From: Methanobacteriota archaeon
GTDB taxonomy: Archaea; Thermoplasmatota; E2; DHVEG-1
DNA: 64,000 nt
Reading direction: 5' to 3'
Assembly (NCBI GenBank): GCA_963769885.1
Contig: CAVYNH010000004.1
Coordinates: forward strand, 75,904-139,903
The position numbers and the translations under genes were made by a program. The notes below the pieces were generated by a model. That model searched no databases and was not told the DNA's origin. It saw only the letters and a program-made list of their open reading frames with translations. Shown here in pieces: positions 14,618 through 16,239 of this stretch. Numbering within the stretch: position 1 is the stretch's first letter; every line of letters starts with the position of its first letter.

Positions 14618-15100
14618 TCACGTAGTTTTTTCTGGTAAAATTATTACTGTAGGGTTCCATCTAAGATATTCGCCACGATATTCAATATCTATTAACATTG
14701 ATGAGGTAATTAGTAAAGAAACAGCCCTCGGTTTTTTAAGAAAGTCTCTGTATGTTTTGGGATAAACATAGGGTACAATAATATCTCTTCCAGGACGAAT
14801 TGACCATAAAAATCCAAATAGTTCTTTATTTTCGAATTTTGTTATGATTATACATAATTGTTCATTTTTCTTAACATTATAATTTGATATATTTATTAGG
14901 CATACATCAAGATAGTAGTGGTTGAAACTATGAGGCGTATGTAATAGATATTCGAAATAATACTTTGGAATTATATTTATACTACCGATTGAATTCGTAG
15001 ATTTATAGAAGATGTAATGATTTGGTAATTTCAATTTATCAAGTATTTTTGATTTTATTGTTATTTCACAAGTTTCTTCATCCATTTTATCATTTATCAT
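14618..15100 (-). CDS. Hypothetical protein, tightly coupled downstream of the SIR2-like gene
   Basis: 160-aa track ORF; ATG at 15100 lies 5 nt after the SIR2-like stop (15106-15108); no recognisable motif; ~30% GC. Confidence 0.5.
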   Translation of the reverse strand: MINDKMDEETCEITIKSKILDKLKLPNHYIFYKSTNSIGSINIIPKYYFEYLLHTPHSFNHYYLDVCLINISNYNVKKNEQLCIIITKFENKELFGFLWSIRPGRDIIVPYVYPKTYRDFLKKPRAVSLLITSSMLIDIEYRGEYLRWNPTVIILPEKTT

Positions 15101-15105
15101 AGTTG

Positions 15106-16239
15106 TTATCCCATTGATTCAAATAAGTCCATGAGTTGTAAATTTGATTTGAAACCGCCATTAATGAAGATTGGATCCTTTACTATTTTTGTATATCTTT
15201 TTTTTAACTCATTATCTATATTTTTATTTATAATAAATATTTCCTTGTTGTTATATTCATTTATATATTGAAATAATTTTTTAGCTTCTTTATCATAATC
15301 TGGAAAGGAATATCCAATGATATAGATAATATCAGCAGTTCTAATTTCATTTAATGCTTTCTTCCATAATCTCTTTAGGGAAAAATGAATATCTTTACAA
15401 TTGGGTGGAACTATAAAATGTCTTGACCAATTTTTAACCTTACATATTGGACATATTTCCGCATCATCTGGAGTTAGAAATGGAGCAGGGTAATAAAAAA
15501 TAGTTTTACAGTTATAGCATTCATATAATGATAACGAGCCATGTAGCTTTAATATTGGTATTTTGCCTTTGGTTGGGTATTCAACTGGAAGAAAGCTTAG
15601 AAGATTAGTAAACTCTTCTATGTTTGGATACTTAACTCTAAAGAAATTCTTAATTTCTCGATTGCTGTAACCTAAATTATAGTTCTTGAAATTATCTTTA
15701 TTTAGCCCTAAATCTGGAGAGGTCGATGCTAGATCATAAAGCGTTCCTAAAGTATGTTCTAAAAATAGATCATGATTAAAGGAAATTATTGAATTAGACC
15801 TGCCAGAAAAAATTTTATATATAAAGTTCATAAATGAATTATCAGGAATTTTACATAATATAACATCATCTGCTTTTAGTAATAATTTATGATAATAATT
15901 AAGCAGTCTGTTTAACTCTTTCATATCTTTTTTCTTTTCAAGATACGTCATTAATTCTTCAAATTTTAAACCATATTTTAAAAAATATTCACATTCAGCT
16001 TTGAGTTTATCTATAGAATCCTCCCCAAAAAATGGTTTTGGACCGTCGGTGAGAGTAAAATTTGGTGGTGGTTTATAGAGACTAATTATAGGTGTTTCAT
16101 CTAATAATGATTTTATTTCTAGTTCAATGTAATTCAAATAATCTATAGAAAGAACATCACTCACTGATGGATATCCAAAACCCTTTGAAGCTCCTGCACC
16201 TAATATATATACACGCTTAATGCATTGTAATTTACTCAT
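15106..16239 (-). CDS. SIR2-family (sirtuin-fold) protein with zinc ribbon
   Basis: YILGAGASKGFG (GAGxS NAD-binding motif), ISFNHDLFLE (N/D motif), CYNC...CPIC zinc ribbon, LKLHGSLS (catalytic His-Gly), IIYIIGYSFPDYD; 377 aa with a ~130-aa N-terminal insertion relative to minimal sirtuins. Confidence 0.7.
   Translation of the reverse strand: MSKLQCIKRVYILGAGASKGFGYPSVSDVLSIDYLNYIELEIKSLLDETPIISLYKPPPNFTLTDGPKPFFGEDSIDKLKAECEYFLKYGLKFEELMTYLEKKKDMKELNRLLNYYHKLLLKADDVILCKIPDNSFMNFIYKIFSGRSNSIISFNHDLFLEHTLGTLYDLASTSPDLGLNKDNFKNYNLGYSNREIKNFFRVKYPNIEEFTNLLSFLPVEYPTKGKIPILKLHGSLSLYECYNCKTIFYYPAPFLTPDDAEICPICKVKNWSRHFIVPPNCKDIHFSLKRLWKKALNEIRTADIIYIIGYSFPDYDKEAKKLFQYINEYNNKEIFIINKNIDNELKKRYTKIVKDPIFINGGFKSNLQLMDLFESMG

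Follow-up and report, generated by a model that had tools for sequence, protein, structure and literature searches.

A zinc-ribbon SIR2-like enzyme and a small orphan partner, probably a new and very rare two-gene NAD-based conflict module in an archaeal island

Two tightly coupled genes, encoding a SIR2-like enzyme and a small partner protein without recognisable domain, have been analysed in a 64,000-nucleotide stretch of archaeal contig CAVYNH010000004.1 (hereafter the window, meaning this whole stretch), and together probably constitute a new, very rare two-part conflict or defence module based on nicotinamide adenine dinucleotide (NAD). The SIR2-like protein (377 amino acids (aa); minus strand, 15106–16239) combines a core resembling the sirim/SIR2_2 proteins with a Cys4 zinc ribbon of classical type, while the 160-aa partner, predicted to be beta-rich, is encoded on the same strand at 14618–15100. 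A spacer of 5 nt (15101–15105, minus strand) lies between the SIR2 stop and the partner start, the coding strand reading TAA CAACT ATG; both open reading frames (ORFs), with their lengths, and the gap between them agree with a preliminary description made from the sequence of the window.

The two genes form a single compositional block with edges at the gene ends. Guanine–cytosine (GC) content is 27.5% for the SIR2 gene and 26.9% for the partner gene against 43.1% for the window, bearing out the low value of about 30% noted previously, and a 300-nt sliding profile places a low-GC block (23–31%) at approximately 14650–16300, comprising both genes and nothing else, between flanks of 37–49%. A search for flanking repeats delimiting an element gave short, chance-level matches only.

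Pairing of the two genes has also been identified elsewhere, giving three informative pair contigs in all in about 15 billion proteins. A 2 kb contig of 35% GC (L001; Logan SRR22936141) encodes a 394-aa SIR2 ORF (32% identical to the window protein, E 8e-46, with Cys4) and a partner 49% identical to that of the window, joined by TAA, 5 nt and an ATG aligned with the window Met1, or else by a 7-nt overlap. A 2.8 kb contig of 49% GC (L006; NCBI GCA_040960625.1) carries a SIR2 gene cut by the contig end, the remaining 240 aa being 39% identical (E 9e-54) and retaining both Cys4 and a long linker described below, followed after TGA and 1 nt by the ATG of a partner about 30% identical. The partner thus begins 1–5 nt downstream of a same-subclade SIR2 gene (32–39% identical) in all three contigs with readable context, so that the co-occurrence on which the description of a cassette depended has been recovered. 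As the pair recurs in each of these contigs, at host GC values of 27, 35 and 49%, it is a conserved, horizontally moving unit, and the contrast between a 27% block and a 43% window, with occurrence in 35% and 49% backgrounds, argues for transfer as a unit. A spurious or chance ORF was rejected for the partner because the protein is conserved (49% and 30% identity) across contigs differing widely in GC. Two further contigs were recovered: one (L002) is the window locus again, 100% identical to it across 2998 bp, and is not independent; the other (L007, 590 bp) contains the partner and is too short for SIR2 context, its junction being unreadable. In the latter (1–427), homologous reading continues upstream of the called partner ATG until, at 14 nt from the end of the contig, it meets an in-frame TAG, which could reflect a pseudogene or an assembly error.

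The association is specific to a tiny SIR2 subclade, and the unit is exactly two genes. A profile of the three-member subclade scores the window protein at 619 bits and the L001 protein at 582, with the next protein at 180, and neither this next-best protein nor the one ranked after it has a neighbour related to the partner. No partner homologue was present at any of 74 loci bearing more distant SIR2 family members, among them 62 GTDB loci and 10 JGI loci, nor did searches of GTDB species genomes, JGI metagenomes, IMG/VR, INPHARED phages and PLSDB plasmids return one; searched with the SIR2 subclade, JGI metagenomes yielded distant relatives only, and viral contigs, phages and plasmids yielded nothing. 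A third conserved gene was not found: the downstream gene of L006 has no homologue in the window, and the two 309-aa genes flanking the pair in the window have no homologue at the other loci. All-versus-all clustering of 1144 neighbouring ORFs of the wider SIR2 family likewise revealed no family common to more than a few loci. Among distant, stand-alone zinc-ribbon members of that family, two adjoin conflict-type genes (L005 324–5960 and L070 99–1163); P0012 is preceded by DUF3780, DUF1156 and a PLD-SNF2 helicase, and P0083 by a DUF4062-GGDEF protein.

The SIR2-like protein displays the GAGxS loop, NxD pair and His-Gly of the SIR2 superfamily in canonical order, and translation confirmed the hallmarks GAGAS, FNHD, LHGS and CYNC...CPIC reported from the sequence. 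Conservation was counted in an hmmalign alignment of 159 family members, a separate alignment (A1) comprising 21 relatives. The GAGAS NAD-binding loop (residues 14–18; 16186–16200) is conserved at G14 in 157/159, A15 in 154/159, G16 in 157/159 and S18 in 157/159 sequences; the Asn and Asp that contact the NAD ribose in the SIR2 fold, N155-H-D157 within FNHD (15769–15777), are present in 159/159 and 152/159, the remaining seven having Glu at the latter position. The catalytic histidine motif H233-G234 (15538–15543), within a KLHGS that aligns with LHGS of both Sir2-Af2 and the SIR2-HerA SIR2s, is retained in 156/159 (His) and 159/159 (Gly), followed by P279 (157/159), W292 (153/159) and, at residues 309–316 (15292–15315), GYSFPDYD, the SIR2_2-type counterpart of the sirtuin GTS loop (G309 159/159, Y310 149/159, S311 156/159, D316 159/159), opposite which 8yhx shows IIGYGFPD. 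All of these elements lie on the minus strand, and their near-invariance across 159 relatives indicates that the residues which the SIR2 fold uses for NAD binding and catalysis are intact and under selection. The remaining motifs are of SIR2_2 type: FNYD (FNxD), KLHGSxNW, PPxxxK and GYSxxD; classical sirtuins have an FGE loop at the position of PPxxxK. The SIR2 domain fills all 377 aa, the protein ending 61 residues past the GYS...D motif. An extra N-terminal insertion had been noted in the window protein; the GAGAS–FNHD stretch of 141 residues is not peculiar to it, being typical of the family (median 142), and matches a long helical insertion also found in the SIR2-HerA SIR2s.

By sequence, the protein is nearest to the defence-type SIR2_2 ('sirim') proteins, its best solved match being the SIR2 of SIR2-HerA. 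It belongs to a family of at least 159 proteins of sporadic distribution, mostly stand-alone, in which it forms a singleton at 90% identity clustering, with its nearest database relatives no more than 32% identical. Pfam SIR2 (PF02146) matches residues 228–311 only, with 17.8 bits (cut-off 24), the PADLOC SIR2 models match at about 9e-5, and the best NCBIfam deacylase model (CobB) scores 23.6 bits (cut-off 221). Of the A1 relatives, 16/21 match Pfam SIR2_2 (PF13289; best E 3.5e-8), 8/21 Pfam SIR2 and 18/21 PADLOC Aga_SIR2 over the SIR2 domain only; the window protein taken alone gave no SIR2_2 match at E ≤ 0.1. When a profile of A1 was run against all PDB sequences, SIR2-HerA SIR2 subunits ranked highest over near full length (8yhx 1.2e-15, 8j4u/8su9 1.6e-13, 8w9l 1.5e-12), followed by a match to Sir2-Af2 restricted to the His/zinc segment (7e-5) and a weak match to KomC (8zsf, E 2e-3), with ThsA and DSR2 absent at E ≤ 1. 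An AlphaFold2 (AF2) model of medium quality overall (predicted local distance difference test (pLDDT) 67.7, predicted template modelling score 0.72) is confident in the C-terminal half and contains six core Rossmann strands and a three-strand ribbon. Foldseek searches with this model returned 37 matches at E ≤ 1e-3, every one a SIR2 or sirtuin, led by 8sub (SIR2-HerA complex, 1.5e-9) and then Sir2Tm (∼3e-7); by target length, small archaeal sirtuins fit well, for example 1m2h with a TM-score of 0.60. Alignments, PDB profile and Foldseek together support the earlier reading of the protein as a SIR2-fold enzyme in which the NAD-site residues are intact and a Cys4 ribbon is present.

The putative zinc ribbon (CYNC-x18-CPIC, C241/C244/C263/C266; 15442–15519, minus strand), located by translation and alignment, is the feature in which the family departs from published descriptions of the sirims. 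Cysteine occupies the four ribbon columns in 133, 110, 120 and 109 of the 159 family members, with at least three of the four present in 129/159 (about 80%). In a HMMER alignment, the family sequence 'lHGSlnwlaCekCktly...rkCpkCkk' stands opposite 'LHGSMDKLDCLDCHETY...PRCRKCGS' of Sir2-Af2 (1ma3), placing these residues at the sirtuin zinc ligands, and the AF2 model has three short strands here (238–241, 247–249 and 272–275); the aligned segment of the SIR2-HerA SIR2s contains no cysteines. The zinc site and Cys tetrad have been described as 'systematically absent from sirims', which usually have at least seven strands (10.1101/2024.09.18.613514), and the zinc module as missing from SIR2_2 proteins and perhaps a later development tied to deacetylation (PMC12700824), in agreement with the earlier remark that SIR2s of defence systems usually lack the ribbon. 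The combination of a sirim-like sequence with the Cys tetrad therefore makes this family a mosaic outside both published generalisations.

A further feature, common to the pair-bearing subclade, is a long linker between the NxD pair and the catalytic His (residues 165–222; 15574–15747, minus strand), delimited by family spacing and alignment. N155 and H233 are 78 residues apart, the family median being 45; the linker aligns residue for residue with the partner-linked SIR2s of L006 and L001, and its residues 169–218 have pLDDT below 50 in the AF2 model. Being common to all three partner-linked SIR2s, it may be a candidate partner-docking region.

The partner, as judged by sequence and fold libraries, is an orphan unlike any known protein. 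A word-indexed search of 5.8 billion proteins yielded a single relative (P0077, 49% identity), and an exhaustive hidden Markov model search with a two-sequence profile against 1.84 billion cluster representatives gave three clusters in all: the query's own, P0078 (a 108-aa fragment) and P0079 (165 aa, about 30% identity). Across the four aligned sequences 19 positions are invariant, among them G96-F-x-W99, P110-Y-x-Y-P114 and W148-x-P-T151. Neither the single sequence nor all four members matched Pfam, PADLOC, NCBIfam or PHROGs, and a profile against PDB gave nothing better than E 0.8, corroborating the reported lack of a recognisable domain. The AF2 model is beta-rich and unreliable (pLDDT 52), fold searches with it giving noise, and the absence of any partner match longer than 168 aa leaves no fusion (Rosetta-stone) evidence.

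With moderate confidence, the SIR2-like protein and its partner are interpreted as a horizontally acquired two-gene conflict module, functioning in abortive-infection defence or in a toxin/antitoxin-like manner. In characterised small SIR2 systems (SIR2-HerA, Kongming, SPARSA and Thoeris), SIR2 is the NAD+-consuming effector and a co-encoded protein exerts control, and by analogy the same logic would be the most economical reading here. The 377-aa protein would act as effector, binding NAD+ through the GAGAS loop, N155 and D157, with H233 cleaving the nicotinamide-ribosyl bond, and would either deplete NAD+ or transfer ADP-ribose. The 160-aa partner would be produced at a matching level from a shared transcript and would bind SIR2 as a dedicated regulatory subunit gating its activity; it might either hold it off until a viral cue or supply the cue-sensing surface. 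The NADase activity, the physical complex, the sense in which the partner would regulate (as activator or inhibitor) and the antiviral role are all inferred, defence and NADase function being proposed because of family resemblance and island context. This interpretation is favoured by the near-invariant catalytic set, by the profile and fold relationship to SIR2-HerA, by the restriction of the partner to this SIR2 subclade, by the single block of foreign composition, and by surroundings rich in mobile elements and nucleases, including an OLD-family gene, an SbcCD-like pair, an IS110 element, integrase and IS200 fragments, a TIR gene and two XerA-type integrases beside tRNA-Arg.

Several observations weigh against a defensive NADase. 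The window protein on its own lacks a Pfam SIR2_2 match and misses the gathering score of Pfam SIR2, and the retained zinc ribbon and six-stranded sheet of the AF2 model are linked in the literature to sirtuins acting on protein substrates, not to NADases. In the wider SIR2 family no recurrent defence neighbours were detected, with at most two of 148 neighbouring genes per Pfam family, and some members, such as P0003, sit among ordinary metabolic genes. The pLDDT of the partner model is too low to show a binding mode and, with occurrences of the pair numbering just three or four, selection for pairing rests on few observations.

A protein-modifying sirtuin is the main alternative, though an unlikely one, and builds on the kept zinc module and the six-stranded sheet: the SIR2-like protein might be a deacylase or ADP-ribosyltransferase whose zinc module holds the substrate, with the partner as substrate, carrier or adaptor. 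The analogy is with SirTM, which shares an operon with its target GcvH-L. The Cys tetrad aligned with the Sir2-Af2 zinc site and kept in most of the family, the six Rossmann strands of the AF2 model, as in classical sirtuins, and the fit of 1m2h to that model are all in its favour, and the zinc site has been linked to the binding of substrate residues, being absent from NADase-type sirims (10.1101/2024.09.18.613514, PMC12700824). It is opposed by the SIR2_2 type of the other motifs (FNxD, KLHGSxNW, PPxxxK, GYSxxD), by a score far below the curated deacylase cut-off (23.6 versus 221 bits), and by the lack of any match between the partner and lipoyl, acyl-carrier or other known families of modified proteins; foreign composition and a mobile setting are also more in keeping with a module of selfish or defensive kind than with a regulatory enzyme. 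The housekeeping version, a CobB-like deacylase with an unrelated neighbour ORF, is barely credible: weak Pfam SIR2 and NCBIfam deacylase matches over the His/zinc region are outweighed by their sub-threshold values (17.8 versus 24 bits for Pfam), by the sporadic distribution without conserved genomic position or neighbourhood, by a GC content 16 points under that of the genome, and by conservation of the neighbour ORF with SIR2 in three contigs. A housekeeping CobB has accordingly been rejected as far as sequence can show, in keeping with the earlier view of the protein and, since it does not cluster with core housekeeping sirtuins and the partner does co-occur with it elsewhere, the finding of a two-gene cassette stands.

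Two further alternatives concern the fate of the pair within a mobile element. As a plain toxin–immunity or addiction module stabilising such an element, without virus sensing, the SIR2 would be the toxin and the partner its constitutive neutraliser; the tight coupling of a larger enzyme followed by a small downstream protein, the insertion sequence and integrase remnants around the pair, and hosts of different GC would be consistent with this arrangement, which overlaps the proposed conflict module and differs in trigger only. Of the type II toxin–antitoxin modules, in which a labile antitoxin neutralises the toxin by binding it directly, the pair shows the two-gene layout. The addiction module nevertheless appears quite improbable, as the partner contains no DNA-binding or other antitoxin-like domain and neither gene occurs on any catalogued plasmid or phage, and as the partner is as well conserved as the enzyme or better (49% versus 32% in L001), which is unusual for an immunity protein, these being fast-evolving. 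Decaying cargo, with one or both genes non-functional, is suggested by the fragmentary state of the flanking integrase and IS200 genes and by the in-frame stop near the N-terminus of the L007 partner ORF; both window ORFs are full length with all family-invariant residues intact, and the L007 stop lies only 14 nt from a contig end, rendering decay very improbable.

Beyond the conflict module itself, a broader proposal is advanced more tentatively, as a possibility somewhat short of an even chance: the family may represent an undescribed lineage on the defence (sirim/SIR2_2) side that has kept the classical zinc ribbon, one archaeal-borne subclade of which would have taken on a partner of unknown fold, the two making up a new NAD+-depleting system for immunity or suicide. 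If such a lineage exists, the zinc module would be older than the sirtuin/sirim split and not a late sirtuin invention.

The window is archaeal, and the pair is set in a variable island where mobile elements and nuclease genes abound. The gene for aIF2-gamma is located at 60851–62092 (651 bits, equivalog cut-off 514.5), followed by a 121-nt, presumably intron-containing tRNA on the plus strand (62522–62642; Rfam 50.8 bits, missed by ARAGORN). An OLD-family nuclease (AAA_15 and OLD-like TOPRIM, matching the PADLOC GajA and AriA models; 7028–8977, minus strand) is divergent from, and adjoins, an SbcD-like phosphoesterase gene overlapping that of an 896-aa SMC/Rad50-like, SbcC-like ATPase (9233–13053, plus strand). 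Library scans of the neighbours of these genes detected no HerA or NurA; the nuclease and SbcCD-like pair may be further defence modules of the same island. Pfam confirmed the placement of the SIR2 pair between an IS110-type transposase (13302–14279) and an 85-aa tyrosine-integrase fragment (17692–17949). A 309-nt gap upstream of the SIR2 gene precedes a 309-aa protein on the minus strand (16549–17478, singleton cluster), previously described as a HEPN-motif neighbour: the motif RKRSKLVH, of Rx4-6H pattern, is present, while no match in Pfam, PADLOC, NCBIfam or PDB supports HEPN. This gene differs from the pair in GC content (36–43%) and does not occur in the other contigs that carry the pair. 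Past the integrase fragment lie a helix-turn-helix (HTH) gene, a second low-GC block (about 29–32%) with an ORF at 19094–20023 (minus strand) for another 309-aa singleton protein, without family match in Pfam, PADLOC or NCBIfam, and an IS200-type transposase fragment.

Further features extend across the remainder of the window. Tandem paralogues are encoded on the minus strand at 21453–21854 and 21960–22382, the second a DUF2582 winged-helix protein with two repeats (Pfam), the first judged by visible sequence similarity. A 1954-aa protein with M28 peptidase, PKD, Big_13 and Laminin_G_3 domains (26964–32828, minus strand) and a 781-aa prenyltransferase/SQHop-cyclase-like protein with Ig domains (42865–45210, minus strand) are encoded by genes of 56–60% GC with strong positive GC skew, a foreign composition opposite in direction to that of the SIR2 pair. 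A homologue of MbnB/TglH/ChrH-type enzymes modifying ribosomally synthesised and post-translationally modified peptides (35217–35939, minus strand), beside a PIG-L deacetylase (36056–36727, minus strand) and a 473-aa ORF without assignment, may belong to a small natural-product cluster. A TIR_2-domain protein (46917–47888, plus strand; E 3e-19), with a weak match to the TIR part of a retron anti-phage reverse transcriptase model, is directly followed by a XerA-like tyrosine recombinase (48019–49014, plus strand) and two ORFs without assignment in a stretch of 28–32% GC, which may be another integrated element carrying a defence gene. A 450-aa tyrosine recombinase (56141–57493, plus strand) is positioned directly beside tRNA-Arg(CCG) (57563–57638, minus strand), a likely site of integration at the border of the variable region.

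The significance of the pair lies in the wide reuse of SIR2 NADases as immune effectors, in Thoeris, DSR, SIR2-HerA, prokaryotic Argonaute (pAgo) systems and human FAM118, under varied effector control; a control partner without relatives in any library would be a new way of gating SIR2. The wider implication comes from the zinc-tetrad family, which conflicts with a published generalisation, absence of the Cys tetrad having been used to argue that defence-branch SIR2s are unable to bind protein substrates and that the zinc module is of late origin (10.1101/2024.09.18.613514, PMC12700824). A tetrad-carrying family of at least 159 proteins, sirim-like in sequence, is a direct test case for that late-module scenario, and is relevant to the question of a role for the zinc module in NADase-type chemistry. 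The extreme rarity of the pair and its inferred function limit the impact of the cassette itself.

Among known systems, SIR2-HerA (Nezha; 8yhx, 8j4u, 8su9/8sub, 8w9l) shares most with the pair, giving the best profile and Foldseek matches over near full length to SIR2s of similar size (380–430 aa), with the long helical insertion after GAGxS, the NYD, KLHGSxNW, P..K and G(Y/F)(S/G)FxD motifs, and a two-gene layout in which SIR2 is the presumed effector; its SIR2s, however, lack the ribbon cysteines and are only about 15% identical. SIR2-HerA itself was rejected, there being no HerA match among the neighbours and the coupled gene encoding a 160-aa orphan. Classical sirtuins (Sir2-Af1/Af2, Sir2Tm, CobB) resemble the window protein in the Cys4 ribbon directly after the catalytic His-Gly and in the modelled six-stranded Rossmann sheet, but the window protein falls below all curated thresholds, has otherwise SIR2_2-type motifs and a much longer helical insertion, and is sporadic, compositionally foreign and not syntenic. 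The SIR2_2/'sirim' proteins (ThsA, DSR1/2, pAgo-associated SIR2, FAM118) have the same catalytic residues and provide the Pfam (PF13289, 16/21) and Aga_SIR2 (18/21) matches of its relatives; they are described as systematically lacking the Cys tetrad, which is found in about 80% of its family, and as having at least seven strands, where the medium-quality model shows six, and the window protein has no SLOG, STAND, APAZ or C-terminal sensor domain.

The remaining systems are more distant in architecture. Thoeris was rejected for want of a SLOG domain, the only TIR gene lying 31 kb away (46917–47888), DSR1/DSR2 for want of a large polypeptide with a C-terminal sensor domain, the protein ending so soon after the GYS...D motif, and SPARSA because no Argonaute or APAZ was present among the neighbours examined, with Aga_SIR2 matches confined to the SIR2 domain. 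Kongming (KomA/KomB/KomC) offers the likeness of a small stand-alone SIR2, KomC (8zsf, E 2e-3), working in complex with a small partner, KomB (PMC13454610); it was rejected, as the 160-aa partner is no HAM1-type pyrophosphatase and nothing resembling KomA lies next to the pair. Two-gene systems built on SIR2 are thus already known, and what is new here is the partner together with a sirim-like SIR2 bearing the zinc tetrad.

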